A stretch of 34,538 nucleotides of DNA from Klebsormidium nitens. Its lineage: Eukaryota; Plantae; Klebsormidiophyceae. Every line of letters begins with the position of its first letter. Within the stretch, counting starts at the first letter, position 1. A program made the translations under genes and the position numbers. The notes under the pieces are model-generated. The model saw only the letters and a list, made by a program, of their open reading frames with translations. It made no database searches and had not been told where the DNA came from. Positions 1 to 27,076 of the stretch are shown here, in pieces. The DNA lies in NCBI GenBank assembly GCA_000708835.1, contig DF237711.1:2767-37304 (forward strand), read 5' to 3'.

Positions 1-339
1 AAGAGGTTCGCCGTGCGCTTTTGTCAAGCGTTTCCAGACATCAAGACCATTAGCAAAGAGTTTGCTTTCATTCATTTTGGGCAAGTCGATATCAATCATA
101 ATAATGCTGTTTGGGCCCGATCGTCCGAATAGAAGGGCAAGGGCATTCTTGTCGGAACAGTTGCGAATTGTGTCTTCGTGCAACCCCCAAGAAATCTCAT
201 CCACGATGCTTGAGTATGAGCATCCAAAGCTCCTTGCGTCTTTCTTTCTATCCACTTTGTTCCATGTAAGCTTGAGCGTAACCGGCAGGAGATGAAGACT
301 CCAGTACGATGAGATGCTTTCATTGAGGTCCGGATTCAT
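1..339 (-). CDS. Prim-Pol (bifunctional DNA primase/polymerase, AEP superfamily) N-terminal domain protein, intronless, 3'-truncated by the window edge
   Basis: ATG at 339. The frame stays open to position 1, so it is missing from the ORF track. Translation: MNPDLNESISSYWSLHLLPVTLKLTWNKVDRKKDARSFGCSYSSIVDEISWGLHEDTIRNCSDKNALALLFGRSGPNSIIMIDIDLPKMNESKLFANGLDVWKRLTKAHGEPL. The segment N-A-L-A-L-L-F-G...I-I-M-I-D-I-D...N-G-L-D-V-W..L...H-G-E-P fits the Prim-Pol pattern (NxGhhTG...hhhhDhD...G...). The expected T-x-S-G-G-x-H motif would lie just outside the window. Confidence 0.75.
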   Translation of the reverse strand, partial: MNPDLNESISSYWSLHLLPVTLKLTWNKVDRKKDARSFGCSYSSIVDEISWGLHEDTIRNCSDKNALALLFGRSGPNSIIMIDIDLPKMNESKLFANGLDVWKRLTKAHGEPL

Positions 340-507
340 TTTAGGGCTGGGCAACCCTCTATGATAAGTACTAAGGAAAATAATTCCCGGAATCTGGACG
401 CGTTGAAATCTTGATTTTGAGAGAAATTGACCTCCATGCAAACGCATAAAAAGCAACGGCCGGTCCGATGGAACATGCAATGGATCAGTGCATCGTTAAC
501 AAGTCCA

Positions 508-780
508 CTAACAAATCTCGTTCATTGGGCTCAAATGTGAGTTGCCTTCTTGCACATACCCGGCAACTGCAAGCTTTGCCATGGTGGAGGGTCGAAGCCT
601 CTTGCCTTCGCAATATCGTATTAAAGCTTTACGTAAACATATCTCCACTTTAGCTTTGCTATAGTGTTTACGAGACCAATCTTTGTATTTGTCAAGATTC
701 GAGTGCCGATAGCGCGCTTCATACAGCCGCCGGTGATGGTTGGAATCAGGTTCTCTCGTGTCGGAAACCGACTCAGCCAT
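508..780 (-). CDS. Small basic hypothetical protein (90 aa), intronless
   Basis: ATG-started ORF rich in K/R/Y (RRLYEARYRHSNLDKYKDWSRKHYSKAKVEICLRKALIRYCEGKRLRPSTMAKL). It is co-oriented with and lies between the transposase and Prim-Pol ORFs, with an AT-rich stretch (~960-1000) upstream. No family assigned. Confidence 0.45.
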   Translation of the reverse strand: MAESVSDTREPDSNHHRRLYEARYRHSNLDKYKDWSRKHYSKAKVEICLRKALIRYCEGKRLRPSTMAKLAVAGYVQEGNSHLSPMNEIC

Positions 781-1101
781 AGCAACGTGCTTTACTGTCT
801 ACCCTATGAAAAGAAGATACTTTCCTGACGAATCACTAGATTCATGATGACGCCTGGGACACCTTGATCGCTCGCTATTTTCTCATGTGAGGTTTTTCAA
901 AATGGATACCCATGACTCAAAAACCAAGTGCCATGGTGCCAGAGAGTGTGTAGTGGAACCATGCTGTTGAATATTATTATACAAGTATATTCAAAAGGTG
1001 CCAGTAAGTGTCTTGACTCCCTTCTCTTCGCCCCCACATGAACGAGAGCATCCCACACGCTTGCGGGAAAGCTCAACAGCTATCAATCAACACATTATCT
1101 A

Positions 1102-4100
1102 TCACCTGTACAAGAGAGCTGCGCGAACTGCCGGCAACCAACGAACTACACTCCCAGCAATTCTGACCTTTTGGTCATCAACCCGTGTCAACTCTGCGTT
1201 GCGCCCGCTCACTACGTTAGCTAGAATGATCATGAACGCATTGAGACCGCTAAACCAACCTAGCACCTTGAATTTGATCAAGAAGGAGTTGACACTCTCC
1301 ACCGCAGAGGTGTTAACCCAGCGCACAGCATCGTAGTAGTCTGGATTGTACTGAGGACCGCAATTGTGCGCCTCTGGGCCAGTCTTCTGGAAGTGGAACC
1401 TGCATGTGCAATATCAAAGCATTTGATATGCACGCATACATCTTTTAAGAGGCGGCTGCTTTAAGCAGACATTAGGATGAGCCATCAAACAAAAGAAGTA
1501 ACTCTAGATGACGGGCCAAACTATTTTCGTTGTAACGAAGCCTTGAAATCTTTGTCGTCCAGTTTTTAGTGCCTCGACTGTCGCAAGTTCTGAGAATAAA
1601 GAATCTAGGGCCTTGAGAACTTTTGCCGTTCAGGTTTTGCAGATGATATGCATATATTAAAACGACAAAACGTGGACGGCGACTTGTTCTGTTCCCGAGC
1701 TTAGGCACGTGCCTCGACTGTCGCAAGTTCTGACTCCATAAAGGTTGATTATCTTGTCCTAGTTTAACGATCGATTCGCAAAGCATGGATGTATTTGCTG
1801 TTTACACACTCACCGGTCACAGAGGAACCGGACGTCAGCAAAGAACCCAGGCTCTCGGCGCATACTGTACGCGCGCAGCTTGCAGGCGTTGTCGTAGAAC
1901 AAAACGGAAGGCAGATTGTGCCGATGGAGGCGGGTGTACAACACCGCGAACGGATCACGAGGAGACTCTCCCCGAAGCATGGCGTGGAAGCCGTAGATCA
2001 CTCTGTGGGGGCACACGAACACAAATCCCCCCTTCGCCGTATGCTTCTGCAGCCGCTTGCCCGCCTTTTGACTTTTGGCTTTCGCAACCTTTGTATCATA
2101 CTCAGCCACGGTGAGACTGCTCTTACAGCGGTGCTCCTCGCTGCTCTCGACTGCCCGACCGAGCTCGTCCTCAAACGGCTTGTACTGGGGCAGAGGCCGT
2201 TTCTGCTCCCAACCGGGGAGGGGATAACAGCCGAGCACGTTCTGCTCCCGGCAGTACGGATGGTCTTTGGGGAGCGCTTCGAGAAGCCGTCCGTTTCCGG
2301 AGAGCCCTAGCCGATTGTGCAGCAGCTCGCGCTCGGCTTGGTTAAGAGCATACACGGAGGGGTTCGGTGGCTGCAAAGCCTCGACACCGGGAAGCAGTCT
2401 GTTCGCTCTCTCTCTCCAGAAGGTGTAGCTCTCGTCTCGCTCCTCGTTCCAAGACCCTTGGACGTCCCGTCGCAACTGCAGCAGCCAAACGCAGGCATCC
2501 AACCCCTCGATAGCAGACAGCGCCCACCCGGCTCGACCAACCCCCAGCCCGACTGCCCCGCGTCCAAACAGCGTCAGCCGGTACAAGTGGTGGAGCGTGG
2601 GCAGAAAGAAGGCCGGAAACACTCCATCGTAGCTATCCAGCAACCGACGAAGGATGGGCGCATGCTCAGCCAGCACGGCCTTTCCCCCCTCGTCTGCTGA
2701 ACCCCCCAGAAGGATCGTCCGAACAACAGCCAGCGCCGCCCCATGCTGGATCAGGTTGCTGTCGTCTGCAACAGACTGGGGGGTCCCCAAAGCGTAGAGC
2801 AGTTCCGCCCACCACTTTCGCGGCGAACGCACTCCACGGGGGTTGGCGCCCAGCGCAGCAAGGGTCTCCCCCCGGATCCCCTCCAACAGCAGCCGTGCAG
2901 CTCGGTTCTTCGATCGGATCTGCCCGATCTGCTCCTGCAGAAGGCGCCTCCTCCAGTGAAGCAGGACGGGCTCGGCATCCGCATTGTCGGGGTCGGGGAC
3001 AAACTCGGAGACGAGCTCCACGTCATCGCGATCCAGCGCAACCTAGGAAGAAGTCAAGAAGTCACATCCCTAAAGAGTGGAAATGATGAAGTGGGCATCA
3101 TCTGAAAGGCGCATTAAAATTGAGTTCCACAGAGCTAGAAGACCTCGTGTCAACCATTTTAAGTCCCACCAGAAGAACCTCGGCTAAGCATTGGAAGAAG
3201 ACATTTCGCCCATATGGAGCAGAGAGGCACCTAATAGCGTGCGCAGTTTGCGCGCAATCGCTTCCAAATTTGGAGGGTCTGAACAACTTTTAAAGACATG
3301 TCCGACCAATCTAGTTTGACTTTAGCTGATTTCAGCAGACCTTACAAAGGGTTTTTGGTCACAAGAATGATTTGTTTCACCTACCAACAGCTCATGAAAT
3401 TCACCCTCGCTCAACTGCGCCCCAAGATCCGGGTCCTTTGGATGATGTTGGCTGTAGCGCGCCAATAGAGCCCGCAGTTCCGGCTGGTGGATCAAGCGCC
3501 GCTTCAGCCCCCGCCCCTCCAGCCGCAGTCGCGCTGAAGTTCACACCGGCTTNNNNNNNNNNNNNNNNNNNNNNNNNNNNNNNNNNNNNNNNNNNNNNNN
3601 NNNNNNNNNNNNNNNNNNNNNNNNNNNNNNNNNNNNNNNNNNNNNNNNNNNNNNNNNNNNNNNNNNNNNNNNNNNNNNNNNNNNNNNNNNNNNNNNNNNN
3701 NNNNNNNNNNNNNNNNNNNNNNNNNNNNNNNNNNNNNNNNNNNNNNNNNNNNNNNNNNNNNNNNNNNNNNNNNNNNNNNNNNNNNNNNNNNNNNNNNNNN
3801 NNNNNNNNNNNNNNNNNNNNNNNNNNNNNNNNNNNNNNNNNNNNNNNNNNNNNNNCCCCCGCCCCTCCAGCGCAGTCGCGCTGAAGTTCACACCGGCTTC
3901 CATGTGCTTCACGACGTTCTCCCCGAAACCGTTCCGGCTCGGAGCTGTGAAAGGCCGGAGTTCGCTTGCCGCCGTCCCCGCGAGCCCCCCCTTCGATCTG
4001 CTACCATCCGCGCACGCTAGCCCGGCGATACCATTGCAGACCAAAACGTCTGGGTGAGGCCCGTAAAGGCTGCAGCACTCGAGGATGCTCCGCCCACACA

Positions 4101-6350
4101 GCCGGAAGAAGGCCAAGCAAACCTTTCGCCATGACTCCTCGCTGAGGAGGGGAGCGGCCCCCGGCGAGAAGAGCCCCCGGACCGCCTTCTGTGCACTGAT
4201 CAGGGCGCTGAACGCTGATCCTATCCCTTGAACCGAACGGAGCAGGAGCTGGCAAGTCTCTTGCCTGACGATGATGGCTCTGCTCCACGCGTACAGGCCA
4301 AGCGCTTCCCCGTTGAAGTGGACGGTGTGCTTCAACGGGCATCCGCAGCAATAGACCCGAACCTTGACCTGCAAGGATGTGCGCGCTTAGCCAACGTCCG
4401 TCCAGGTTCTGTCATCTATATTTTTTAAAATTAAAAACAATATTATAATGTTTATTATATGTGTCTCTGATGCAAAACCTGGACAAGATTTCGAAGGCAA
4501 AAATGAAGCCCAAGAATGCATTCGGATCGCCGTCCAGTTGTTGACAAAGAGCGCGCTCGAGTCGGCGGTCCAGTTTTTGCCAAAGAGTGCGCATTCAAGT
4601 CCCCGTCCACGTTCTGTCATCTATATATATGTGTCTCTGATGCAAAACCTGGACAAGATTCAGGTTTGCCGTCTCAGGTAGCCGTCCAGTTTTGCTCAGC
4701 GAGTTGACCGGACACGTGGCAACGCCTCGTGCGGACACATTGGCAGGCACCCTCACCTCAAGCTGAAAGGCTCTCAATCTTAAAGCTGCAGAAAGAACAA
4801 GCACCTTAACTTTGATCTGGCAAAAGCTTGCATCACGTACCTCTTGCGACCAGCGCAGTGAATGCACGCATGCGCTCTGCAGCAACGCTTGCCACGCGGT
4901 ACCACATGGAGCCAGTCCGGGCTTTGGGCAAGGTGCAGACAAGCACCCCGCGGCGCTCAGCTCCTCGAAGTCCCTCTGCACGAGCTCGCTCACTCTCACG
5001 GGCCGCCGCAGCGACGTCACCAGCGGATCGTGCACCTCGAAGCTGTCAGTCGGCCGGACCAGCTTAGGGACCTCGAGCTGCACACCTTTCGCGTCCAGAG
5101 GCAGCACCGGAGCCCAGAGCGGACTCCCGGCAACATGGGGGCAAGCCGAAGCTGGGCATACGCAGCTTACGCACACTCTGATTACGCTGCTCATTGCGTC
5201 CCTTCCGTCCCCTCCACCCAACGCCTGCGGCGCAGCGTGCGCAGGCACAACCTCTTCCTTTTCAGCTTGCAGCGCCCCCGTTCCCGTCAATTGCCCACCT
5301 TCCCGCTCTGGTTGAGCTGCCCAAAAAGCTTTAGACCTCTTCGGTCCCCGGTTCTGAGAAACTCGGTCCTCCCGGCTCCTGTCTTCCTCTCTTCCCCCCG
5401 GCCTCGCGCGCGTCAGTCCCGACTTGGCAGCACCCGATCTCGCAAGTCCCCCGCTCGAAATCTGCCCCTCCGAAGAGCTGCTGGTGCTGCTTACAGAAGC
5501 ACGATGCCCCCTTGCAGCTTGCCTCATGAGGCTGGCCCACGAGAAGCTCCTTCAGGTACCGTTCGACCGAAGACAGGTCGGACGACCCTTCTGCTGAGCC
5601 TCCCTCTTTCGACTCCAGCGCCCGTTCCCTCTCCTCCTTCCGGTCCGTTTCTAGCAACCAGGCACGTGCTCTTGCCAGCTGGTCATCGGAGAACAAGCAG
5701 CCGCTCACTCGCTCGATGCCTCTGCCTGGATTCCGGAGAGCGTCTTTGACAGCGCGTATGTGGTCGCAGTCTCCCGACGTGCTGCAACCCGACTGCTTGC
5801 CCTGGCAGTACCACGCCTCCCCCGCGCCCTCATCCTTGTGCACCATCGTCCGCTTGGGAGAAGGGGAAGCTGCGTTCCAGTAGACGCCAAAGACCCTTTC
5901 AGCCCCTCTGCTGCACGGAACCTCGATAACCCGCCTGCCCTTCTGGAGCGCAACGTGGCTGGCTTGCTGGCGCGACCCCAAAGCCGCGAGCGCCAACTTG
6001 TGGACGCATGGAGCATCCGGACCCAGGCGCCCGCGGTCGCAGGTGCAGCTGGACTTCCCAAGGGTGTTCCAATGGACCGTTTCGAGCAGGGCTGTGGACT
6101 TGCTTGGTCGTCCAAGGGGCTTTGGCCTGGCATCGTTGTGGTTCCAGACGGTCATGAGGTAGGCCAGGCCAGGGGGAACCTTCTCTCCCCGTTCAGAACC
6201 GCCCCCCAGCTCATAGATTGAGCACGTTCCGTTCTAAACGCCAGCAAGGAACCTCGTCGCTTGAGAGGTGAGAGAAGAAACTGCCGCGCCATCGGCATGA
6301 CAGCGCTCCTTGCTGTCTGAAGACTCGGCGCCTGATGTGGAGGGGTCTTC
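1102..6350 (-). CDS. KDZ (Kyakuja-Dileera-Zisupton)-type DDE transposase with SWIM and CxC zinc fingers, multi-exon, probably inactivated
   Basis: Inferred exons: 6350(or 6233)-4841, 4368-3405 (across a collapsible gap), 3278-3179, 3042-1814, 1399-1102. Splice sites read from the sequence: GAG|GTACGT...TTGCAG|GTC, GG|GTGAAT...TTCAG|A, GAG|GTTCTT...CCTAG|GTT, CG|GTGAGT...TGCAG|G; phases are consistent. Motifs: SWIM CTC-x10-CVH (~6047-6008); second Cys/His cluster WYC..C..CDH; YCCGCP..VHFNGEALGLY; CSLYGPHPDVLVCNG; FVCPHRVIYGFH...GESPRD; LFYDNACKL; and, after splicing, DRFHFQK....HNC...NTSAVESVNS. The last three match the KDZ catalytic core. Confidence 0.85.
1569..1733. repeat. 25-bp exact direct repeat inside the last transposase intron
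   Basis: GTGCCTCGACTGTCGCAAGTTCTGA at 1569-1593 and 1709-1733. Confidence 0.9.
3553..3855. other. Assembly gap (N-run) with duplicated flanks
   Basis: 3508-3552 is nearly identical to 3856-3899, differing by one base (CCAGCCGCAG vs CCAGCGCAG). Confidence 0.95.
4400..4660. repeat. Tandemly duplicated unit inside a transposase intron (4369-4840)
   Basis: GTCCA(G/C)GTTCTGTCATCTATAT at 4400-4421 and 4605-4626. TATATGTGTCTCTGATGCAAAACCTGGACAAGATT at 4456-4490 and 4626-4660. Confidence 0.9.
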
Positions 6351-6882
6351 CTGCGATGGACAAATTGTGATCATCTTCAAATCAATATTTGGAGTGAGCC
6401 ACCGCCAATCAAGCGTGAGCTAACAAGTGAGAAAGGCGCAGAAGGTACTGACCGAAGGGCACAATCCTCACGAGTTTGCAATCATACTGGACTTTCTGGC
6501 CACAAAAGCAGTGTAAAAGCTCTTGAATTACTCAATTGCAATCAGTTTCTTGCATTTGAGAGGACAATTAACAATTTAGCTTGCTCTTTTGTACAGTTAT
6601 TAGGTGGTGGAAGCTTGACACCTCTGGCACCTTTTATATATATTAGTAAAAGTATATACACTACACAATTGCACTGCACAACTTTAACGGCGTGGCACCT
6701 TGGCACCTTGGACACCTCATTTTCAATCATGGAACTTTCATTCATAAAAAACCTGAACGAAGCAAAAACAAGAGGTGGGGGTGTCCAGGGTGCCATCCAA
6801 AAATGAGACCATTGGCAGGGCGCGGCAGTTTCTGAGGGGCTCAACACCAGATCAGAACCTCACTGCACATTGAATAACTCAC

Positions 6883-7488
6883 GTTTGCGCTTGACGTCAA
6901 CTTGCGCTTGACGTTTGCTCCAGCAGTTCTCCCCCTGTTGAGCGCGCTCTCTGCAGCGGATTTGGCTACCTTGCCTGTAACTGACTGTCTGCTCAACGCA
7001 TCCCGCACCACCAATCTCTCTATGCAAGTGCTTGTAAGCTCTTTGACCTGCTTCCAGGGAGTCCCCTTCGATTCACGCTTGAACCACGTCTCACTGGTTG
7101 CTTGCTTCTGTGTCACGATTACTGAGGTCTCACTTACATGAACAATGCCAATCAAGTGGTCCACGCAAGAAAGACACAAAGGCTGCACGTGTTGCTTGCA
7201 CTTAACGGCTGACGAGATGGCAAACCCAAAATACTTATGAGACTTGCGGAAAGTGATCTTTTGTGTCGCTTCTTGCCCACTCTTGACTAGCAAGGGCTGC
7301 TTGCATAACACGCACTTGCTAGCTACAGGCGTTTCGCTGAACAGAAGGGCAGGATCAACAATGTATCGACCAGTCTGCAAACTCTTCTGGTCATCAAACC
7401 CTAGGTTGAGAGCTGGGCGAACCCTCTGCTGAGATGGCATGGTCCCTGGTGCATTGCATTGGCTCGGGTTGTAGTCGCCGCCTACCAC
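6883..7488 (-). CDS. Cys/His-rich ORF, likely first exon of the transposase gene or an accessory zinc-binding protein
   Basis: 215-aa ORF (6841-7488) with CVLC...CKQH-x4-CLSC. A strong phase-0 donor AAC|GTGAGT at 6882 is compatible with the phase-0 acceptors at 6351 (TCGCAG) or 6234 (GTTTAG). Confidence 0.55.
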
Positions 7489-7604
7489 TTGGATCTGAAG
7501 TTAAGACTCGGAAGAGGCTCGAAGTACGAATATCCAATTCAAGTTTTGTGGGAATTTATACCTCACTTTTTGGGAACCAGTCTGGCCTTCATCATAGTAT
7601 GACA

Positions 7605-7628
7605 CTCGACTGCTCGACTGCTCGACTG
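7605..7628. repeat. (CTCGACTG)x3 tandem octamer
   Basis: Three exact copies read directly from the sequence. Confidence 0.9.
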
Positions 7629-10600
7629 CTGCCTGCTATTCAGCTATACCACGTAGTTTTTTAAATTGTTCTCGTGTTTAAAGCGTGCAACGTGGGTCGT
7701 TTCCGAGCGGTTTTATGAGCGGTTATATCACGTGGGTACCCGGCCGGTGTAAAACTTTCCCCGGTTTTCGGGATCGCTGCCCGTCTCGACCTCAGGGGTG
7801 CCGTACCTGAATTCCTCTACGGCACCAGCTTCCTAAATAACGTCAAAGTGCCGGAAATTTAGCCTTTAGCGCGCAAAGACCGTCCGATCTGGCAGGTGAT
7901 ATTTGCGACGAATCTCGGCCGTCTATTTTATGCCAACGATCAGTTGGTGCCCCCGGGCAAATGCGGCCCTACGTTGACAGATTGTTAGACGGGCAGCTTG
8001 TCACGGCACCCGCAGGCCGTGCTCAGCGAAGCAAACGTCACTGGTTCAACCACCACCGGGGGTATAAATAGTGCTGGTTACCAGCTTTGCCATAATCACC
8101 TTTCGCAACTTGAAAATTGCGACGGGCGCATTGGGGCGCGCAACACTTACAACAAGGCCAGCAGAAAAACAGGCCGTTTCTTTCCGTTTGAGCGGCGGTT
8201 TCGACCTGGCCTCGCTCTGTTGACTAAAGTCGAGCGATAGAAAGAAAGACCGCCGAAAACAGCGAAGTAATGCTTCTGTTTTCAGATTTATAAGCTCAAA
8301 TTTCCATAAGTTGGAAGCATGCGCCTTCGGGCCGAAATTTGAATTCCGGTGGCCGTTGGCGAGAATGACAGCCGGTTTGCCCCAAGTTATACCCCCGGTG
8401 GTGGTTTAAGGGTCCAGCAAGATGATGACAAAATGGGAATGGTCCGCGGGACGACAGCATTTGGCCACTCCCGATCCCGTATGGCCCATAGCCTATGCGG
8501 AGTTGGAGTGGCCGGGGCGGAGTTGGGTGGGAATGCAAGGTCGCGCCAACTGCCAAGCGGCGGCCCCGGCGGCCGCGCGTCCGGCTGACGAGGTTCAGCT
8601 AGAGGGTTTGGACTTTAGAGCCCTTTTGCCTCACTGTGGAGAGGTGCGGTACCCCCCTTCATTGAAATTCATCGTCGCAACATTAAGATACCGTACTTTA
8701 TGGTACGTACCTCCAGGGGTATATCCAAAGTCGGTAGTGCTCGGTATCTGTGGAAAACCACGTGGGCTTAGACTCTTCCCGTGGAAGGGGGATCGCTACT
8801 CGCCAGTCACAGCAGAATGGCCGGCCACGCAGCCAGAGCCAAGTTGCACCTTGTTTCAACAGACCTTTTCCCCATTCTGATCTATTGTAATCTCGATTAG
8901 CCTTGTGCTTTGTGCTTCGTGCTTTTGACGGTGGTGACTTTGAATATGAGCTGGCTGCGGCGGGGGCGGGCCCAGGAGGGCGCCTACTTCCGCCAGGAGA
9001 CAGAGTTTGCTGCCGCCAGACTGCGACGAGAACTGAAAGAAAAGGGATTGTTGGTCGAGAGCACGCCGAGGCGGAAGGTGGCATGGGAGGACGGGGCCTC
9101 TGAAATTCTGCCGGAAATCTTGCAGGTGTGTCCACTAAGGTGGTGGTTTATTGGATATAGCAATGCCGTGTTCCTGATCGTCGCTCAATACATGCAGTGG
9201 TGGTGTTGAGACACCTTGCTAAAGTGGTCAAGTAACCTAGCCTATCACTGGAATTTTGGTTGCATGAGAAAGTTATCTATAGCTATTGGCTGGTACATCT
9301 GCACAGATTTGGCATGAGAAATACAGCTGAGTTGTCTGAGTGCCTTCAAATCAAGTGAACAGCAAGGGCCGGGGGTCCTCATGTTGGGATTGGTGGTGGT
9401 GTGGGCAACCATAATGGATACAGTCACAATTGACCAAATTTGGTTAGAGTGCTCGTCTTCCACTTCCGGTCAACTGCCCTCTAACCAGGTTGGTCAAGGA
9501 AGAGTATGTTCTGTAACTTGACTTAGATGGCTGGACAGTTCTTTGAGCACTAAGTGCAACAGAAGGACCTCCATCTGAGAAGCGGACACCTTGAAGGCTG
9601 CGGGACACTTTACATAGTTAGCTCTGCGGCACTGATCATACTCAGGGCAGATAGAGGCATCTCAGAAAATGCCCCAGTTATATTTGTCGTCTCGATTGGA
9701 GATTAAGAGTCAACTTTTTCTCAAAAGTAGAAAGCAGCTGGTGAGGGTTGATGTCTTGCAGTGTTTTCGTACAGCGCTTGCAAACGCTTCATATGCAAAA
9801 ACCCCTGCAGGGGTTTTGTCCACTCATCATGGAAACTTAGCGTCTCTCAAAAAAAAATTAAGAAAGGGTTGTTTCTGCTTGATGACAGGATTCAAGCAAT
9901 CAGATGTGGCAATCATGCGGATTTGAAAGCAGAGCCTCCTCTGGACTGAATCAGTGTCAACGTTAACTTTGGAAGATGTGCAAATCTGGATACACTTTGC
10001 AATTCCAGAGAGGCGCTTTGATTTGCAGAACGAACTGCCCCTGAGTGGGGGTGCAAGCGGGGAAGCTCCTGAGGTTCGGAGGACCAAGGTCATCTCCCCT
10101 TCTTCCGCATCTAATCCCGTTTTTAATACGTCCAATTCGGCCCTTGACCACTTCAGCCGGAGCCTGCCCCAAACCACGCTCGGGCGAGGAAGGTGCGTGG
10201 ACCTCTAAGGCGGTGTTGGTGCTGTTGTAAGGGGGTAAAAGGCCACCTGAATCTGAGGTCTGATCCGTTTTCTGTGGACCCAGGGTCATCTTGGATTAGG
10301 ATTCTGATCGGCCTGGGATCTTGTGTGGTTTCTTAGCGGAAGCTGGGCTTTCTCGCTTACATTTTCGTCGAGTTTGTGAGCCTGGCCCTAAATTCAAGGC
10401 CTATTTCGGAGAACGTTCTCTTGTAATTCCAAAGAATTGCAGCTTGTTTCCCGTCGGTTCCTTACTTCAGAGCGGCTTCTCGTTTTTAAGCCGAACATGC
10501 CTTTTCAAGAAGGATTGAGAAGTTGACCACGGCGAAATCCGTAGGTTTCTGTGAACAAGAGAGACAGGACGCCGTTCCTACTTTCTGACCCCTCTCCCCC

Positions 10601-10725
10601 TTCTCAGGATACTCAAGATCGATCGACTTTGATTATTTCTCTTATCAATCTGATCACAGTCGCCTTGCGATTTCAGCTTCAATACACGTCACCCTGCCAG
10701 TCCGCAGGATTTTAAATACCTCCTC

Positions 10726-12749
10726 ATGGTACGCTTTGTCTGCAGATGGAATTTGGAAGCCCTAAAACCTCAGGACCAGGGAAAGGCAATCAGCGCGTAT
10801 GAACGGCGGGCGATGCGGTCCACGCCAGCGCAGCGAAAACAAGCCGAGCTTCTGGCCAAGGGCTATTTTCAGAGTAAGACACAGCATGACCTTTGCGCTC
10901 CTTTCTATGATCGGATTTTTGAAGCAAAATAGTTTTTTTGAAGCTTCTCCGTTCTGAAGCCATTCGGCGAGTCAGCATCACAGTTTATTCGGGGCTTCTT
11001 TCTTAAAGTTCTTACGACGTCTTTCTGCAGTGCATCTACTGTGTGTCTTTACACCGTTAAGTCAGAAGTGAGCAAAGCTTTGCAAGCGTCTCCGTATCCC
11101 AGCGCTTTTTGCCAGAAAGGTATAGAGGACCACCTCGCTTGCAGGGGCCTTAGTCCAGCATACGAGCAGTCCAAGGACTGACGCACTGTGTCTTCGAACA
11201 TTTTATGCAAGAATACTAATTTAAGAATGCTTCTCAGTGAATGTCGCAGGCAGGGCATCGACAATGCCTTCGTTCATTTGTCACGATACGGCAACTTCTC
11301 CTGGCATTCTCGAATTTCCGCCTTTGTAAAGGTTCTTTCGCTGTCGGCTCTTGTCAAGCATTTCCCCGCTCGTTACATGTGCAGTAGTCAAGGGTTTCGT
11401 GTTGGGTTCTGCCATAGTCTTTGGCGGAGGAGTTCTTGCGGCGGCCCTCGTGGTGAAAGCGATGGGGGCGAAGCAGGTGAGACTCAGCGCTGATCTTTTT
11501 TCTCTTCCACCCAAGTACTCTCGTAATCGGTTCTAGTTCTTCGTCCTCCGTATTCAAGAGCCGTCCGAGTCTCGTACCTTTCTCTTATATGCTTCCTATG
11601 TCCGACCGACATGTCCAGCCCAAATACATGTTAGAAAGCCGTTCGCAACAGTGCAAAAAATCTTCAAACCCGTCCGAGATGTTCCGAAGTTGGAAGGAAG
11701 GACACTCGTTCGAAGCTCGAGCGCCATAACGATTGAGTCAAAGTGCTTGCTGGTGTCCGAAGCTTGTCTTGCTGAACGTCGTTCTACCTTTTTCTCACCA
11801 GAAATGGTCTCTTGTAGTGCATGCGGAATGGAGTACTTCTGGTGCTGCTACGGCAAGCGGAGTACTGCCTCGGCCTCCGGATCCCAGAATGTTCTTTTTC
11901 AACAGTCCGGATGCCCCCCGAAGAATCGAACGAAAGTCGATCCCTAGAAGCATTTTGGAGGCTGTAGTTTCGAATGACAGTCCCTTATCGGGATGTCCAC
12001 AGTTCTTCACTCCGGTCATCTAAGCAATGCAAAGGGTGATGGCTTCGTCTCGCCGCAACGGTTGTGCGACAAGGAGAAGCAGACCTGACTCACAACGTGC
12101 ACTGTGACTGTTTGTTTCCAAGTCACTGATCTCGGCCGTGATTGAGGCTGCAGCTGAGTGACATTCCCGAGCGGGGGCGTGACTACATGCAGCCACGAAT
12201 TGACGCCTTCAAGGAGCGCTTCACTCCCTTCAAGGCGTGGGTGCGTCAATTTAAGCTTCTGCTTTTGTCTCGGTTTTGATCTCCGTTCTGAGAGTTTGCA
12301 TCTGGTCGTTTCCAGGTTTCGTTTTGCTTTCTGCTCTTTCAGGCCTTTAGAACCTTGCTTCCGCTGCCTAGGACATAGTTTTGCTAGGTTAAGATTGTCC
12401 GAGGAAAGAGGATTGTGCAGACGACCATAATTTGTGGACCTTTCAGTGAAAGCGGCCAAATTTGCATCCGGCAAAATCGAGTTAGAGGGTATGCTTAGTG
12501 CTTTCCATTTGTCTACGTCGAAGCGGATTGAAAGTATGAGAAGAGTTGTAAAACATGTAGTCTGCATGTTCTGACGGCTGGTCTTGGGCTCCGTTGCAGA
12601 TCCGAGAGAAGAGCAGCGGCTGGAAACTAGAGGAGCGACGCAAGCAAGCGTTGGGTTCACCTTTTGCAAAAGGGCTTGGGGTGCCACAGTCGGACACGGG
12701 CACTCCCCGCCTGGGGAGCTCGCCCGAGTCAGCGGAAGGCAGGGGATGA
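10726..12749 (+). CDS. Small single-pass membrane protein of a conserved plant family (~160 aa), 4 coding exons
   Basis: Exons 10726-10873 (5' end uncertain; acceptor-like site at 10707), 11385-11476, 12154-12240, 12600-12749. Junctions: A|GTAAGA...GCAG|TA, CAG|GTGAGA...GCAG|CTG, TGG|GTGCGT...TTGCAG|ATC; all phases match. Spliced product: ...AYERRAMRSTPAQRKQAELLAKGYFQIVKGFVLGSAIVFGGGVLAAALVVKAMGAKQLSDIPERGRDYMQPRIDAFKERFTPFKAWIREKSSGWKLEE... It resembles, from memory, an uncharacterised land-plant family (KGF.hGS.IVFG...RxKGRDhhQP+h-). Confidence 0.75.
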
Positions 12750-14170: not shown

Positions 14171-17100
14171 ATGGGAGTCTTCGACGCTGAAAGTGCCGCC
14201 TTTCTGGTTGAGGGTGGAAAGCTTGTGGTCCAGCAACGCACGAGAGCTTTCCAGCCTGTTTCCTGCTTTGGCAGTCTGCAGGGCAGTTGCAAAGTACGTA
14301 CTCCGAAGAGGGAAAGTTTTGAAGCGCCAGGGCGGACAGGTAGCGACGAAAAGCGACGAAAAGGGAGGTGCTAAGGACTGCTTTAGCAGCCATCACGCAA
14401 GCCCGAAGCGTGCACATGAGGCGTAGGGTGTGCAGAAGGAGCCACGCCAAGATTGGCCGCCAAAGTGGAGCCGTTTGATGACGTCAGGTCTAGGCCGCAA
14501 CCCCCGGGAGAATGGGTCTCCTGGGAAAGAGCAGGAGCAGGGGTCCGAACATGTTTCTCATGCCGCGGCAGTGGCAACTATCAGCATGGATCCCACTGCT
14601 GCGGAGGCAACAGATGACGGGACAGGAGAGGATCAGAGGCATCAGACAGGGGCGGTTGATGGACCTAGCAGTAGTAGCGATAACAACAGGATTGTGGCAG
14701 AGCCTCAGCAGTCTGGTCAGAAGGGGAGTATTCATGCCGCTGACCGTGTGAGGGGTGGAGATGCAGGGGTTAGCACTCTAAAGGTGAGGGGGAGTCAATT
14801 TTGCTAGAGCAGTTGCATTTGAGCAGGATTTCTTTCTTCTCCGTGTCCCAGAAGAGTCTGCGCGACATACACTGTTCTGGCAATAAGCAGGATCACGCTC
14901 TGACTGCTTAGCAGAGTTGCAGTTGTTCTTGACAAGTGCCTGCAGATACCGGCACAAGTTAAGCTGGTCTCCGCAGCCTAGTCGTTTTGCATGAACCTCA
15001 AAACTTGCATTGAATGCATATCTTCTTCAAGCGGGGTTGTGCCTATCACTTCCAAAGATTAGAGGGGCTTGCTTTAAAATGTTAGCCTGTGCACCTCAGA
15101 AATGACAGGGAAGCAACAGCAAGGAGTCATGCGAAGCTGAGTGTAGCATAGGATTTTCCCAGAACACCAGATTGGGAGGATAGCCACTAGCTGAGACCCC
15201 CATCACTTACATTCAAAGACGAGAGCTTGACAGAACATACATCAAAGGGCAGCTGCTAAGGATCACTATTTGTTGAGGAGATACTGAGCAACCTGGGGTT
15301 ACGCAATATGCAGAAGCTTCTTGTCACTTACATATAGCCTGAATCAGTAGATGCAAAAAGGCACCCCCCCTGAACCCTTGTAAACGAGGAGAGACAGTAA
15401 TGAAGTAAGTTACAAGAACATGGGGGAAGTTTCCGCAGCTTAGAACATCAATGTCCAAGCAGGGAAACTGTCAAGAATCTGATCCAAGGCTCAGCTTGTG
15501 AATGTGTTGGCAGCATCTTAATTTGAGAGCTCAAGCATCAGGGATGAAACAAGTTGAGTTGTCTGTGCGAGCATACGAAGCACAGCCTCCAATGGAACAG
15601 ATGCAACGCAAGTAATGGATCCCCTAGGCCAGCAGAGCAGCCTTTGATAGACTCTCAAGAGTTGTATGAAGCGTTGACAAGCAGAGCAAGTACTGGGTTT
15701 GGAAGGATTGAGTTGTGTTCACAAGTTGGTATTGCATGATCGCATGAGAGCAGAAACCTTTGAACAAAGCATTATCAGACGTCCCATAGGCAAGCTACAG
15801 TAGGTCTCATTGGCTGAGCCCCTTATGAACGTACCCCCATATAGGCAGGCCAGAATAGGGCAGCTCTTATATCCCCCTTCCAAAAATAGGGCAGCTCCCT
15901 TATCCCCCCCCCAAACTAGAGGCATGCTCATGGGCAGACTGAACCCCCTGTGCAGGTTAGGCCAGGCTTTGGCTCTTGCCGCTGCCGCTGCCCCCCCCCT
16001 CTGACCCCCCCTTGCGCTTCTCTTGACGCCTCTGCTTGCCTGTTCCCCCAGGACCAGGAGGGGGACAACAGCCGCAACGCCTCGGGGGAGCTCGGTAGCT
16101 CGTCTGGCAGCAACAGCCTCGACGATGGCAACTGCAGCAATACTGCGGAGGGGGGGAAGGAGCAGCAGGATGGGAGCAGCAAGCAGGCTGAGAAGCAGCC
16201 CCCCCTGCAGGGTCAGAAGTTGCAGCAGGCGCCAGGGCCATCCCCCAAGTCCCTGGGGTGCGGTAGTGAGAATCGGCAGAAGGGGGGCAAAGGGGGGGGT
16301 AACACGAAGGGGGGGGAAGAGGAGGAGAAGGAAGTGCAGGGGAAAGAGGAGCAGGGGGCGGGGGATCAGGAGGAGGGGGGGCGGCCGGTGTTAAAGAAGC
16401 CAGACAAATTGGAGCCCTGCCCGCGCTGCGACAGCTATGACACCAAATTTTGCTACTACAACAATTACAACATCAAGCAGCCACGCCACTTCTGCAAGAA
16501 CTGCCAAAGGTGAGGGGAGACGCTGATTGAGTTTTCTGAGCTCCTTTTGAGTCACATTGTGCATTGGAGCTAGGTTTGTGCTCCAAGGCTTTGATTCCTG
16601 GATGATGGGATTCTGTGTGCTCTGCTTGATTTGCCAACTATCGCATAAACAGTCTGCTTCTAGTCTCTTGAAGCAGTAGGCAACTCCCTTCCTCAGTTGA
16701 TCCCCCATTCTTGGCTCCATTCTGCATTGGTTGCCAAACTTAGGACTCTGGTCACAAGAGCTGCCATCTGATCATCTGCAATCCTACTTTCGAGTAGACG
16801 AGTCCCTCTCTGTACAAATTTGTACAGACAGTTTAGAATCATCTTTTGAAACCCTGCCTGATCACATGCAGATGGCAGAACACAGGGTCCTCTACAACCC
16901 ATGTTCTTAGGTCAAGTTTTCATCTTTTGGGCACACATTTTGACCTTTGTCTCATCTGGGTATGCAACTCTCCATTTCAACCCTTATGCTTCAAACCTGA
17001 GAAAACCTCAATGAGCTTCTTTTTCACTCAAATCAGTTCCTCAACCTTTGCTTAACCCAGTTTCTCCATCCCCCCCCAGGTACTGGACTGCCGGCGGCAC

Positions 17101-18659
17101 TCTCCGCAACGTCCCGGTCGGCGCTGGCCGCCGCAAGAACAAGCACAAGTCCATCCAACGCCTCGGCCCCGGATCAGGCTCCGACTCAGAGCTCGTCATC
17201 CCGTCTTCTTCCGGTGGCGAGGACTACCTCGTGCGCAGCGGAAGCCTGCGCTCCTCCAATCCCTCCCTCAACGCCACCACCTTCAAGCCCCCCGCCTCGC
17301 AAGGCTTCCAGGGCCGCTTTGTGACGTCATCCAACCCGCCTCTCTACGATTCCGGCACCAACGACAAGAGCGGCGTCACGCACAAGCGCGACGGGACCTC
17401 CGCCGACGAGATGCAGTCCGGGGATCAGTTCCGGGGACCGCACTACGGGGGGGCGGCTGAGGCAGGGCCGGAGGCAGACCCCCGGCGCGCGAAGCGTGTC
17501 AAGCGGAACCCCCCCCCCGAGACGGGGGTGCCCGTTGGTCGGTTCGGTCGGGGCTTCAGAGAGAACTCGGAGTGCATGTCGAGCCAGGCCGACAACCGTG
17601 ACGGGGGGGCGTTTGTGGCGGACGCGATGATGTCACCCGAGAGCGCCAAGAACGCGCAGTGGCCGGCGCGTGCGGGGGAGGCGTTTGGAGGGCCGGTTAC
17701 GGGATGGAATCAGGGGGCGGCTGTGCCGGCCACTCCTACTGGGGGGGCCTGGGCGCCAGGCAACACCGCCCCTTGGGGGGGGATGTGGAACCAACCCTGG
17801 CCTTACCAGATGCCGATGGGCCAACGTGGAACGGAGGCGGGGGGGGACGACGAACGTGAGTAGGCGTAAGTCGTAGGGAGGCGTAAAGGCGACGACGAAC
17901 GGGGATACGGGATGAGNNNNNNNNNNNNNNNNNNNNNNNNNNNNNNNNNNNNNNNNNNNNNNNNNNNNNNNNNNNNNNNNNNNNNNNNNNNNNNNNNNNN
18001 NNNNNNNNNNNNNNNNNNNNNNNNNNNNNNNNNNNNNNNNNNNNNNNNNNNNNNNNNNNNNNNNNNNNNNNNNNNNNNTGTGGAACCAACCCTGGCCTTA
18101 CCAGATGCCGATGGGCAACTGGAACGGAGCGGGGGGGGCACAAGTGATGGCTACTCCGGGGGCCAACTATGGCGCTTCTCCGCAGGGGGCAAACTGGGGC
18201 ATGGTTGACAACTCCTCGTTTGGGGGGGGTGCAAACTGGGGGGCGAGTCCGGTGAACGCTGCAAATGCGGCAGCCGCGTGGGCGAACGCAAACGTGTGGG
18301 CCGGACTTGCGGCGGCGGGGAATGCGTGGGGGCCCCCCTGGGCCGCCTGGAGCGTGTTTGGGGCGGGCCCGGCAGCAGCGGCTGCGGGCATGGCGCCGAG
18401 CCCGCAACCGGCGCCGGGGGGGGGCATGGGGAAGCACCGGCAGGAGGGGGGTGGAGAGGGGGAGACCCGAGCGGACGGCGTCTGGGTGCCCAAGATTGTG
18501 AGGACAGAGCCGGTCCGGGGGAGTGCACCGTTGCAGTGGCAGCAGCAGCTGGGGGGTGGCGGGGACGCGGGGTACTTGGGTTTGATGAAGAACGGGGAGA
18601 TGGCGGACTCGCCAGGGGGGCAGGAGGACGGAGTTCCCACCCCGCTGAATCTGCTATAG
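14171..18659 (+). CDS. CDF: Dof zinc-finger transcription factor, CYCLING DOF FACTOR (CDF)-like
   Basis: Exons 14171-14293 (less certain), 14436-14783, 16052-16509 and 17080-18659 (across a collapsible gap). The Dof domain [39 protein letters not shown]|[21 protein letters not shown] is split by an intron (AG|GTGAGG...CCCAG|G). The C-terminal GKH...VWVPKIVR resembles the CDF motifs LGKH and LWVPKTLR. Confidence 0.93.
17917..18078. other. Assembly gap (N-run) with duplicated flanks
   Basis: TGTGGAACCAACCCTGGCCTTACCAGATGCCGATGGG occurs at 17784 and again at 18079. The left copy degrades into noisy sequence. Confidence 0.95.
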
Positions 18660-20062
18660 TTGCTGTGGTCTCCAGGTGTATGTATCGGTAGCGCGATGTA
18701 GGTTACGGCGTTGCGTCAAAAGACGGAGGTCGGGCTAGGGCAATAAGGAACTGCGGCCATTGTGGTTTCACGTATACATAGAGCAGGTCGATTTTGACGT
18801 AGCGGTTTGGACTGGACCGGCGACAGGTTTTACAGCTCCGCAAGCTGTGGGAACAGTGCCTTTAGCGCGGCGCAGACATCATGCTTTATGTAAAGAACTC
18901 TTACTGCATAAGAATGGACATATGCTTATGAACGCTGCACTTTCTGCAACAGAGTTTCTGGTCACATCGAATCCGCACGTCATGCTAGCTTTTATTGCAC
19001 AATGACTTCGAATCATTGGATCAATGCTCAGGCTTCAAACCACGTTGAATGCTCTGATCATTTAGTAAAGGTGCCTTGCGTAAGTCACTAGTTTCGTAAT
19101 ATACATTATAATATGCCAGTCGGAATCAGCATTAAGACTATATACATGCATGAACATGGGATACATGCATGGCTGGCCCTTTAGAAGCGAATCATATGCA
19201 ATGGACGCATGCGTGCAGTGGCTTTCTATTAGCTTGTTGGAATTATGGTTTATATTTGAATGCATGTGCAGAACATGAGATTGAAACGGGAGATAGTCGG
19301 CTTAAGTGCCCAGAAGTCAAGGGTACGAAGTTACGCCTCAAGAAAGGTTACTTGCCTTAGTACGTCACTTTTTCAACCTTCCCCTAATCAGCCATCTGAG
19401 ATCACAGACAATTGCCAGCCCGTCAATTTGCAGCCAGAGCTGTATTCAAACGCACAGCATGATATGCCGCAGTAATACAGGGGCGGGGTGCATCATCATA
19501 TGTGAACGATCTGACAATGCTCAGAAGTGCAGACAATGATTTGCCGGACTGATCGATACCTAAAGCTAGCTAGCTGCACATGTGGGCAGGCCGTTACTTT
19601 TAACAACCGTTCATGGCATACTCAAAACTTGAAAGACGTCTACTAACCTAAGCCTTGGTCAAGTTAATAAGCTCAACAACAGCATGCATACTCAAGTGAG
19701 AACAGGATTGATGTTGGACTGTGTACAAAGAGGCGCAACAAGCAGCAAATCTAGATCCATTCAATAAAAAGTCGGTCAATTGCAGCACATATTGCTTTGT
19801 TTAGATGGATCCAGTCGATGACGAAGATTCGGCGCGTGGATTCTCGACTCTGGTCCTCACTTTCTGAAGGCAGAAGCTGTTCAATATTGCTTTCTGAACC
19901 GAGAAGTTTCAAGCCAGACCTTCTTTGCAGCCTGACAAGTGGCTCGACAGAGTTTCATTTGCTTCGTGTTGGAAACCCTTCGTTCGCGCTGTCATGCCGA
20001 CACCTCAACATCTTCGAGACGCCTTCAATGACTGGCGCATATGCACGGCAAAACAAGGTTCA

Positions 20063-23000
20063 TCATGAGTACTCAGCAAAGTCGTCGGCGTTCCCTTCAT
20101 CCCCATACACCCCCTCTCCATGCTCCAGCCCCTGCCCCCCAAATCCAGCATCTCCCCCCATCCCAACTTCGTTCAACCCACCCTTTTTTTTGCCTTTCAA
20201 CTTGGACCCTTTGCCCGCTTTCTTCCCGTTGCCGAGCCCAACTTTCGTCCCACCCCCCCCCTTCCCGGCGCCTTTCTTTGACTTGGGTTGCCCCCCTGAA
20301 ACGAGAGCAGCCTCCTCCCCCGGGTGTACTTTCGCCTTCCGCTTCCGGCGCCCCCCCAAGCCGTCCGCATCGAACCCCGCATCCGCTGGAAAGAAGGCGA
20401 TTTCCGTTTTGTGCTGCTGAAAGTATGGGTCATCGGAAGCAGAAAGCGAAAGTTGGGGCTTCGAAAAAGTTCAGGACGTCAGCGAATGTTACTGGAAAGG
20501 GCCGGCCGCCACGGCCATGACGTCAGAAAGCAAGTGTCAAGCATGTATCACCGCTTTGCAGTTGCAAAGATTCTTCATAGGCGCCGGGTGCCGCGTTTTG
20601 GATGACATAGCTGTGGGCGATCGCTATGATAGGTTTGACCTCTTAACAGAAAGTTCAACACACTAATGACAGGGTGGACCTCTTGAGAAGCGAGAATCCA
20701 GGACGTGTTGGACCAAAAACGAACACGATTCGCCTGTACCGACCACTGCATTCCCTGCAACTCTTGCTCTGCAGACCTCCTAAAAGAGAACCCACCTAAA
20801 ATCGGGTCTGGAGTGACTGGAGTGACAGGACACCAGATCCAGTCCGCGAACAGAGAGCATGTCTTTCCATTCGATGCTAAACCCCCGTAAGTGTCTCCCA
20901 CGAAGAAAAGCTCCGACTTCTTCACAAAGAAACCGCGCAAAGCAATTCAGCGAAACTTTTTTGTCGCGAATTTCCGACAACGTCGGGAAAAAAGAAACCC
21001 CACCCACCTAGCCGATTCGACGGCCCTGGCGCCTCAACCGTTCTCGCCGCCGCCCCCGCCGCGTCATCTTCCGCGACGGCGGGCGCCTCGGTTTCCGGGG
21101 GGTCCGGCTCGGGTTTTACCGGTAGGAAGTAGAGCCCGTCCTCGTCCGAGTCGCTGTATGCGCCCACCTTCTCGACGGTCTCGATGTCGAGGTCGATGTC
21201 GCTATCCACGTCCTTTTGACCCTTTGGCGCCTGTCAAAACGATCAAAATATAGGCGTTTTAGGACTTCACACTTTGATGCTAGAAGCATAGGGGAAGAGT
21301 TTCCGAACTTCAGGATCTGCGCTTCCAGATGTGGTTTTTGTGGGGTAGTCTCGATCAGAGGCACCGGAAGCGTCCATTTCATCAATGCTCTCGCTGATAA
21401 GAATGGTGTCGCTCTCCTTGTCCGTCCACCCCTTGGCGCCTGCATAACACTCTAGCTGTGATTTTTAGAAGCTTGCAAGCTAAGGATGGGGTCCCTTTTA
21501 AGTAGAACCGCTCTAGGCGCCTACATCGTCAACGGTCTCGATGTCGAGATCGATGTCGCTTTCCACGTCCTTTTGGCCCTTTGGCGCCTGCACAAGGTTG
21601 TTGAATCTGTGTCATTGCATCATGCAGTTTGATAAGGAAGTCTTGGTACCTAGTCTTGATCGGAGCCACCGCAGGCGCCAATTATTCGACGAATGCAACT
21701 TCAAGTTCGATACCGGTGTCCACGTCCTTCTTTAGGCGCCTGCGCAAAAAGACTCGGGGTTCCCAGCTTTTTCAGCTTGAGAATATTGGTTACCCTTTGA
21801 TGGATAGTCGTGTTCCTTCCGGTCACCGTATGTGCAGTTCTTGCTGTGGTCTCAATGTCAATGTTGATGTTGTTGTCCACTGTTTCTTTGCCCTCCTTCC
21901 GGCAGGGTTTCAGGATTTGGGCTGTTTTGTGGATTTTCGCTTTTGGGTTTTGGACGTTTACATCGTAATCTCAGAAAGCCCTTCTTCGAGAAGTTTTCCG
22001 CCTTCATTTGCGCGCCCTCTTTACCCTTTCCTTGAAAGGAGTGTGTCGCCTTCTTTTAAAATTTGGATCATTGATTGGCTGCGAGGGATTCCTCTGGGCC
22101 CCAACCTGCTGGTGCGGTCGAAGTCAAGCGGGCAACCGGTGACCCAAAAATAAGGGTTTTCATCAGGTTAAGTTGGACCAAGAAAGGTGAAATCAAACTT
22201 AGTTCAAATGTTAGAACGACCAGCTCACAACCCAGACCCTAGCTCGACTTATCGTCAAAGTTATGAGCAGATCTGACCAAAGAGCTATTAGTTAAGAGTC
22301 CAATACACTGTTATCTTGAAGTGACAATCCGTAAGTCTTCGTAACCAACTCGTAACCGAGCCCCGGTAACCGACCTCGTCTTCCCGCGGGTTAGAGTCGA
22401 ACTCGTCCTCCCGTTCGTCGTACTCGTCGTTCTCCTGGAGCTCCTTGAAATCCGGTGCGAATGCGCTCCAGTTCTCCTGGTACTCTTTCGCCCACACGTA
22501 GATCACACCGGTGGTTGCGACAGAGGCGACAATCGGACGCGTCGGGTGCCACGCCATATCACGGACGCCCTCCTTCGGACCGTCCAGCGTCCGCATGATC
22601 TGCAAGATGAAACTACCTTTCATTCCCAGTCTTTTCCTTGTTCTGCAAGGCATCGTCGAGATGCTGTTATTTGAGAAAGACAAGCGACATTGAGACGTAG
22701 CAGATCTGATTGTCGACAAAAGAGAAACTGGGAAGAATCAAGTGCCAGTAGAAAATAGTGCCACGGAATCCATTACCTACTTATCTATCCCTCTAAGGAC
22801 GTCAACCGAAGCCACCCTCAGCTCTACTCACCGCCACTCGAAGAAGGTCGCAGCATTCCTGTCAAGCAACCCATAAGCATTTCACCCCTGGACAACACTG
22901 TGAACCCCCAAGGCTACCCAGTTAAATAGCTGCAGCAATCTTCTTGAGTTGCTATTCGTAGGATCGCATTTAAAGCAACCAAACGCGACCCCCTTCGGAA

Positions 23001-26090: not shown

Positions 26091-27076
26091 TCTACCAGCA
26101 ATAAGGCCCAAGACGGTGGTGTACTTCTGCAGACTTTTGCGGACTTGCATCGATGGGCTGCAATTGCATTTATCGAACGCTTGCTCACAATCATGCGAGT
26201 CAAAGTCCAGCTTGCCTCTTCAGAAGTCTATTAAAAAGTACAGCCCCTTTGTATTGCAGAAGCCTCCGGAAAAATGGTGGCCAGAAACTGAGAAAGTTCA
26301 GCTCATGAAATTGAATTCAAGAACGTCTCGCTCTGGCCCTCACGCTTTGCACTAGCTTGACTCTTGAGTGGCAATTGTGCACGTCAATTTTCCAACTGTG
26401 GTTGTTCACATCGTTCCTTTTCCTTCCGGCGTGCCGGACGGTTTTTAGGTGACGGGGTTTGAGATTTGCCTGATTGTATTTAAGCGAACGGTACAGCGGC
26501 GTACAGCCAAAGCGGGAGACGGCAACAGACGGCAAGGTTTGCCGACTGATCCCAAAACATGTTAATGAGCCATAGTTTATCACTATGACCCGGAGGCCGC
26601 GGCAGCTGCTTCTTCTCTCAATAATTTATTCTTTGGAAATTGAAGTCTGAAAATACTTCCAGATAGCATGGGTAGCTGTCAAAGCTATCAAGACGCTTTG
26701 GAGAGGCTCTGAAGACGCAGCTTGCATTCTACAATTCGCAGCAAGGATTGTCTGACCAAGGAGACTCTAACCCTAGAGGCTTTGTGCATTTGCGGTTCAG
26801 CTTCTTGAAAGCAAGCTTGGTGAGGGGCGAGTCGCTTTCAGCTGCCCAGCTTATCTTCAGATGGTTCCGCTAAAGAAGACGTGCTGGGGCATTCTTTGAG
26901 CTCGACAATCATTGCCTAGATTCGTAGCCCAACAAGATCGTTTGTACCACTTCAAGAATCAAAAGGATTGCGCTGCTTCACGTCACCGGTGCTCACCCTT
27001 ATATTCACGCCACCAGACATTTCTTGTGCCCTGTGATACCGTCCCTCCAGGCACCAAAAGTGCCTTCGCTTTTCAG

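Follow-up and report, generated by a model that had tools for sequence, protein, structure and literature searches.

The window, that is, the whole stretch of 34,538 nucleotides of Klebsormidium nitens DNA that was analysed, opens inside an open reading frame (ORF) on the minus strand. In frame -3, this ORF (1..339; fragment P0001) runs from ATG 339 to base 1 through 113 codons without a stop, as the preliminary description had stated, and it is predicted, from homology to protein P0002 and to a family profile, to be the 5' part of a gene for a primase-polymerase (Prim-Pol; PF09250-type AEP). The window edge cuts the ORF just before motif II. AEP motif I (hhhhDhD) is present as IIMIDID at residues 79-85 (85..105, minus strand), and ahead of it, at residues 65-72 (124..147, minus strand), lies the strand NALALLFG, which the family alignment identifies with a motif N-[GAS]-h-A-h-L before motif I; the order of these two elements was correctly noted before. 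The aspartates D83 and D85 of motif I are invariant in two family alignments (28/28 and 30/30 rows).

The open frame alone is weak evidence, because about 6% of random 339-nt draws from the window, for a given frame, are also free of stops. The frame stays open upstream as far as TTG 480, and ATG 339 is favoured as the start because other copies of the repeat described below carry one-base deletions at 353 and 359, and because of where P0002 starts. The ORF is indeed AT-richer than host exons, its GC content being 0.46 versus 0.59-0.68 in three host exon stretches, but this is not diagnostic of its origin, because the neighbouring non-coding spacer has a GC content of 0.45. The ORF is free of introns, as claimed, over its 113 codons, and these align collinearly with the relatives.

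Upstream of the ORF, on the same strand, lies a spliced SWIM-CxC4-KDZ-like transposase gene (approximately 7450→1102), whose stop is 760 bp upstream of the primase ATG. Splice sites are seen at its exons, all of which are on the minus strand. The first exon or exons (6860..7452, 5' limit approximate) are defined by the match of residues 36-227 of P0051 to 7452-6889. They are followed by an exon with the SWIM-type region (4820..6353; the SWIM assignment comes from source names, with a P0051 SWIM E-value of 0.055), which is frameshifted near 5370-5400 in this copy, and by an exon with a CxC4-like cluster (3379..4377; CxC4 E 0.039), which spans an N gap (3553-3855). The largest exon (1813..3042) carries the motif YDNAC, has a KDZ E-value of 0.002, below the curated cut-off, and is 100% identical to the K. 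nitens protein P0042. The last exon (1102..1401, AG acceptor near 1401) carries the motifs RFHF..H.C and NTSAVES and ends with the stop at 1104-1102.

At least 21 KDZ relatives, including P0042, are found in K. nitens, several of them named SWIM-type by the source, and precomputed PF18758 or PF18717 assignments are present on three of the 21 relatives listed. Among the relatives, the E-values reach 1e-5 for KDZ and, in P0051, 7.5e-6 for CxC4; the best Pfam scores are just under the curated cut-offs (25.8 vs 26.6 for KDZ, and 26.3 vs 26.9 for CxC4). The family has conserved motifs containing D, D and E. The conserved D of the DG motif in exon 3379..4377, which is inferred to be catalytic, is found in 15 of the 16 family members with the motif and is N in the present copy, so that an intact set of putatively catalytic acidic residues was not found in it (N for D, and the frameshift). 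Because its transposase is frameshifted and without the conserved Asp, this copy is likely dead or non-autonomous. Nine of the 21 listed K. nitens KDZ relatives occupy the first gene position of their scaffold, as is expected if assemblies break inside this repeat.

The introns of the transposase gene contain repeats of their own. A 59-nt inverted-repeat arm (1628..1686, paired with 4596-4654 at 78%, no strand assigned) has both arms in KDZ introns; related sequence in opposite orientations occurs at 1628-1686, 4451-4484 and 4596-4660, in two of these introns, and a 35-nt duplication at 4456/4626 is exact. These repeats are possibly small insertions that are spliced out, or repeats to which the transposase binds. 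Upstream of the gene, 8045-8409 contains 23-nt inverted repeats, 96% complementary and 319 nt apart, which are a possible MITE-like insert or end structure. The N gaps in 3508-3899 and 17784-18138 have near-identical duplications of 45-63 nt on their flanks, and may therefore have arisen in assembly, little sequence, if any, being absent.

The spacer between the two genes (340..1101, no strand assigned) belongs, by contig mapping, to the same multicopy repeat as the ORF. It contains a 90-codon ORF (508..780, minus strand), which may or may not be a gene; it has no match in Pfam, PHROG and further searches, and 508-767 is hit by none of the 12 indels listed out of 18. The inverted-repeat scan also yielded a 37-nt arm at 968..1004, paired with 6624-6660 at 78% (no strand assigned). 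This pair was rejected as the ends of an element, since copies run through the arm at 968..1004 and the arm at 6624-6660 has the first KDZ exon on its far side. To the right of the KDZ gene are intron-rich host genes: a spliced gene for a Dof zinc-finger transcription factor (15950-18700; PF02701, E 2e-17), a WD40 gene on the minus strand (22288-24700), which we take to resemble RBBP5/Swd1, and an intron-rich gene on the plus strand (26900-33200), of which three pieces were scanned and matched no Pfam family. Pieces of the latter look, we assume, like a PP7-type Ser/Thr phosphatase, and its introns near 31060-31900 contain a degenerate repeat.

A direct match to a Prim-Pol/AEP profile, by which the preliminary description had proposed to check the gene, is not obtained for the 113-aa fragment in the Pfam or PHROG scans; for Pfam this is because the window stops before motif II, which leaves the fragment without the motif II half. 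A Foldseek search with its predicted model (pLDDT 68) gave no match, and none of 192 candidates proved to be a longer homologue. The Prim-Pol identity is nevertheless supported through relatives. A phmmer search of 1.84 billion representative proteins with the fragment returned four proteins, of which P0002 (184 aa) is 67% identical to the ORF (E 1e-42), P0004 34%, and P0005 (949 aa) 37%. The other, P0003 (E 3e-28), is a Cys-rich repeat protein with a score summed over 13 weak stretches and was set aside as an artefact; the top Atlas match of the fragment (0.85, response regulators) was also rejected. P0002, P0004 and P0005 all pass the PF09250 Prim-Pol profile, P0002 with an E-value of 1.6e-11 and 45.4 bits against a cut-off of 22.8.

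Moreover, a family profile was built from 24 of 26 chosen members (two missed by the motif pattern were left out), with P0001 and P0002 excluded. The ORF scores 48.4 bits (E 5.7e-14) against it, while the best of 500 shuffles reaches 4.6 bits and the best other of 775 six-frame pieces of the window 4.2. Judged from these scores, the homology of the ORF to the Prim-Pol-D5/SF3 helicase family is not due to chance. P0002 carries motif I, motif II (SGGxH) and motif III, despite 33% divergence from the window ORF. By sequence, P0002 has no real match in the PDB; its predicted model (pLDDT 86) does have one, to the primase-polymerase pRN1 ORF904 (E 1.3e-4), and all four PDB fold matches with E-values up to 0.001 are of the pRN1 ORF904 protein family. 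Among viral fold models, the Homavirus Prim-Pol is the best match (E 4e-13, TM 0.78), followed by Bodo saltans virus proteins. P0001 and P0002 group together (support 100/100) in a tree built from 30 Prim-Pol domains, on a long branch (2.1 changes per column) among Klebsormidium-type proteins. By sequence, then, the ORF is assigned to a virus-type, PF09250-type Prim-Pol gene.

That the ORF belongs to a repeat, and that it adjoins an intron-containing KDZ-like transposase gene, are points on which the preliminary description was silent, while its Prim-Pol reading is itself supported. When the contigs of DNA runs X1 and X2, from one host-organism sample, were compared with positions 1-1100 of the window, 57 and 51 contigs, respectively, mapped there, in identity classes of 99+, 95-99, 90-95 and <90%. 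The summed depth over 1-850 is 60-350, versus 15-27 for the window-identical contigs, a ratio that is not to be read as a copy number. The region of the ORF is multicopy, with several diverged copies. One diverged copy links 716-822 with 942-1076, and the spacer too is crossed by copies; no mapped contig spans the whole distance from the ORF to the transposase gene. Two contigs per run extend past base 1, and these represent other copies, not the present one. Read by hand, the 30 letters past base 1 in these other copies give 10 further codons without a stop, eight of which match P0002 residues 115-124, and other copies read in the same way reach S-G-G ahead of the motif II His. The differences in the ORF between this copy and the others fall at codon positions 1-2 in six cases and at position 3 in two; there is no sign of selection on this copy, the eight X1 sites listed being too few to judge.

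Two further runs were compared with this region. X6, presumed to be an RNA run, yields one contig, covering 1028-1095 only, and gives no evidence on expression either way. Run X5 looks bisulfite-like on 1-1100, with 46 C>T and 43 G>A changes versus 12 A>G and 3 T>C, and has three-letter loose ends; the X5-only sites listed are all non-CG (8/8), which has a chance probability of 0.17.

The relative P0005 combines a Prim-Pol, a D5_N and an SF3-type ATPase region. A search with it retrieved at least 33 proteins, at least 15 of which are K. nitens gene models, the remainder being environmental. The sister subfamilies, to which the subfamily of the window is approximately 28-37% identical, have the fused architecture Prim-Pol + D5_N + SF3 helicase, and all have members with the helicase, which among solved structures is closest to ASFV C962R (E 7e-31). 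P0002 extends no further than the Prim-Pol domain, and a fused helicase is not seen for P0001 or P0002; no long protein of the subfamily of the window was found among the 1.84 billion representatives or in the search for longer homologues. In a second primase-helicase subfamily, the K. nitens proteins P0031 and P0038 are joined to DUF5832, which we presume to have a viral association, and by tag they are not adjacent to a KDZ gene; P0031 has an additional C-terminal nuclease-like region (NERD E 0.09). These two proteins may mark true insertions of Polinton-like viruses (PLVs) or giant viruses.

The preliminary description had proposed a viral or prokaryotic origin. The viral alternative is supported, in that the best viral fold matches are to giant viruses and a Preplasmiviricota-type recombinase is joined to relatives of the ORF. 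The prokaryotic one is not: the GTDB genomes contain no relative of the family, a phage search found none of the fragment, and a plasmid search with P0002 gave two weak matches (E 3e-4 and 4e-6). No related loci were found in IMG/VR for the primase family or for KDZ, and none in the JGI metagenomes. The replication module was likely drawn from a gene pool common to Polinton-like and giant viruses.

In the locus tags of K. nitens, the two kinds of gene are recurrently neighbours. For three of the 15 listed primase-helicase genes, the tag directly adjoins that of one of the 21 listed KDZ genes, namely in KFL_001520110/120, KFL_003670050/040 and KFL_012860020/010, adjacency being defined by locus-tag numbers only, with strand and distance not seen. 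Among the genes listed, and with an assumed 17,000 genes, 0.04 such pairs are expected by chance (P 7e-6); P is 0.02 if only 1,000 genes in TE regions count. A tree of the KDZ relatives listed has two clades, of 6 and 15 members, and the KDZ/primase pairs involve three of the six in the smaller clade versus none of the 15 in the clade of the window (Fisher p 0.015, among those listed). In the latter clade, the sole known primase partner is the divergent ORF 339→1. When the four KDZ/primase pairs are compared, their pairwise identities agree in rank completely (rho 1.0, 1/24 permutations), with the proviso that three of the six primase identities are nearly tied (28.3-29.8%) and that four pairs cannot give p < 0.042.

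Of the three primase models adjacent to KDZ, P0011 and P0023 are joined to an N-terminus resembling a PLV-type Tyr recombinase. In P0023, this N-terminus is similar to Tyr recombinases and to proteins of Preplasmiviricota (Atlas 0.97, TM 0.75-0.79), and that of P0011 is 32% identical to it (E 5e-27). These joins may be neighbouring genes fused by annotation.

From these observations, the ORF and the KDZ-like gene are, on balance, probably parts of one composite mobile element, in which a KDZ transposon is fused to a viral replication module; in its logic, such an element would be analogous to Teratorn. Judged from the functions of the domains, the KDZ transposase would be responsible for excising and inserting the unit, and the Prim-Pol would prime and synthesise the DNA of the element. 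The pRN1 ORF904 protein primes and synthesises DNA in this manner. The Prim-Pol would act with a D5/SF3 helicase, which is fused to it in the sister subfamilies and was not seen for the subfamily of the window itself. The excised element may be copied outside the chromosome and then reinserted, and a Tyr recombinase, where present, might resolve circles or dimers. Several observations count against a composite element, namely that the other 14 KDZ genes of the clade of the window have no listed primase neighbour, that 12 of the 15 listed primase-helicase models have no listed KDZ neighbour, and that no recombinase, DUF5832 or helicase sequence occurs in the window. The ends of KDZ elements are recognised by termini with a target-site duplication (TSD) of 7-8 bp, and in Zisupton by TIRs; no TIR (in 1-12000) or TSD enclosing both genes was found, the left end of the element being outside the window.

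We give an appreciable, if minor, probability to the reading in which an ordinary endogenous PLV, its capsid genes lying beyond base 1, supplies the ORF as the primase of its end module, the KDZ transposons being separate and tending to insert in or beside such viruses. That a Tyr recombinase and a primase-helicase of the AEP-SF3 type are common in PLVs (PMC10120064, PMC12220804), and that PLV-group capsid genes are reported in streptophytes (PMC10120064), are statements in the available parts of these sources that agree with it, as do the Preplasmiviricota match of the recombinase of the relatives, the two family members joined to DUF5832 away from KDZ, and the 12 of 15 listed primase models without a listed KDZ neighbour. 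However, repeated independent insertion does not predict the pairing of KDZ with primase subfamilies or the shared order of their divergence; moreover, no TIR lies between the two genes of the window, copies cross the spacer, and no relative was found in IMG/VR. A PLV is defined as a unit of 14-40 kb with TIRs, and the present element runs off the window, among the scanned ORFs of which no PLV capsid-type gene is evident. If the ORF did belong to a PLV, it would be an ordinary gene of an endogenous virus. It is unlikely that the ORF instead derives from an endogenous giant virus (Nucleocytoviricota), a piece of which was amplified with neighbouring repeats. Intron-less viral ORFs do not occur as a block in the window; the gene beside the ORF encodes a eukaryotic transposase, is spliced and is followed by intron-rich host genes; and the family is split into many diverged subfamilies, as mobile elements are. 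This has to be set against the Prim-Pols of Homavirus and Bodo saltans virus as the best viral fold matches, the closeness of the family helicase to ASFV C962R, and a report, in the part of the source available, of NCLDV core genes in the Klebsormidium genome (PMC5294986).

A different possibility concerns the role of the gene, which might be a short, helicase-less Prim-Pol carried on a KDZ transposon as a passive accessory or relic, without a part in the replication of the element. This is quite unlikely. P0002 does end at the domain boundary, no long close relative was found in either search, and the subfamily is on a long branch, but an intron or contig end could explain the stop of P0002, every sister subfamily has helicase-bearing members, and motifs I, II and III of P0002 are intact despite its divergence. 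Known KDZ elements do carry accessory genes such as TET/JBP, according to the available text of PMC12730594. A further possibility is that the frame is open by chance, or that DNA from a bacterium, plasmid or phage was wrongly assembled at the end of a contig; the position at the window edge, the low GC content and the two weakly matching plasmid records of P0002 would suit such an explanation. It is very improbable, and already largely refuted by the many diverged copies in the host-organism runs and by the profile match (E 6e-14); furthermore, the family otherwise consists of Klebsormidium and environmental sequences and has no GTDB or phage relative.

If the composite element is real, its significance lies in the mode of replication. 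To our knowledge, the self-replicating DNA transposons of eukaryotes are Polintons, which replicate with a protein-primed PolB, and Helitrons, which do so with an HUH Rep-helicase. The combination of a KDZ transposon and a primase-polymerase(-helicase) would represent a further route to self-replication, that is, a cut-and-paste eukaryotic transposon replicating by an AEP primase-polymerase rather than by protein-primed PolB or HUH Rep, and would account for at least 15 Prim-Pol/D5 gene models that are otherwise without explanation, in an alga that is a near relative of land plants. It is possible, though doubtful, that Klebsormidium harbours an old and diversified group of self-synthesizing, capsid-less DNA transposons, in which the KDZ transposase is permanently coupled to a primase-polymerase-helicase module of PLV or giant-virus descent, with or without a Tyr recombinase. 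A KDZ element of this kind would agree with a proposal in a review, the available text of which presents Teratorn as a known transposon-virus fusion and suggests that a nucleic-acid-primed polymerase and primase joined to an integrase could yield new large elements (PMC6431247). No description of a KDZ-primase element was found in the available texts of the open literature.

Compared with known systems, the ORF is like Prim-Pols of the PF09250 pRN1 ORF904 type in motif I, and P0002 in motifs I-III and the predicted fold; it differs in lying on a long branch and in a eukaryotic repeat rather than a plasmid. Proteins combining Prim-Pol with D5_N/SF3 share the architecture of the sister subfamilies, whereas no helicase is seen in the subfamily of the window. 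The accessible part of PMC11296320 describes an 'end module' of PLVs, made up of a recombinase and a primase-helicase, as mobile, and P0011 and P0023 each combine these two genes. Unlike a PLV, the locus has a spliced KDZ-like neighbour, and no capsid, ATPase, protease, TIR or recombinase is seen in the window; the intron-less block with NCLDV core genes typical of a giant endogenous viral element is likewise not found within it.

The neighbouring gene resembles KDZ (Kyakuja-Dileera-Zisupton) transposons in its SWIM, CxC4-like and KDZ-like domains, its multicopy nature and its D, D, E motifs. It differs from them in that termini and TSD were not found, in Pfam scores slightly below the cut-offs, and in that the cargo is a replication enzyme, versus cargo such as TET/JBP in the known ones, as far as the available text of PMC12730594 goes. 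The Plavaka giant repeats of Amoebidium are similarly large, transposon-associated repeats with tyrosine recombinase genes, and the available text mentions no primase-helicase in them (PMC11244446); Plavaka is unrelated to KDZ, according to the part of PMC12730594 at hand. Teratorn, a piggyBac-herpesvirus fusion as outlined in the accessible text of PMC6431247, has a different transposase and a different viral donor, and no structural genes are seen at the present locus, which is in a charophyte host; nevertheless, the two would be alike in the long-term pairing of a DNA transposase with viral replication genes.
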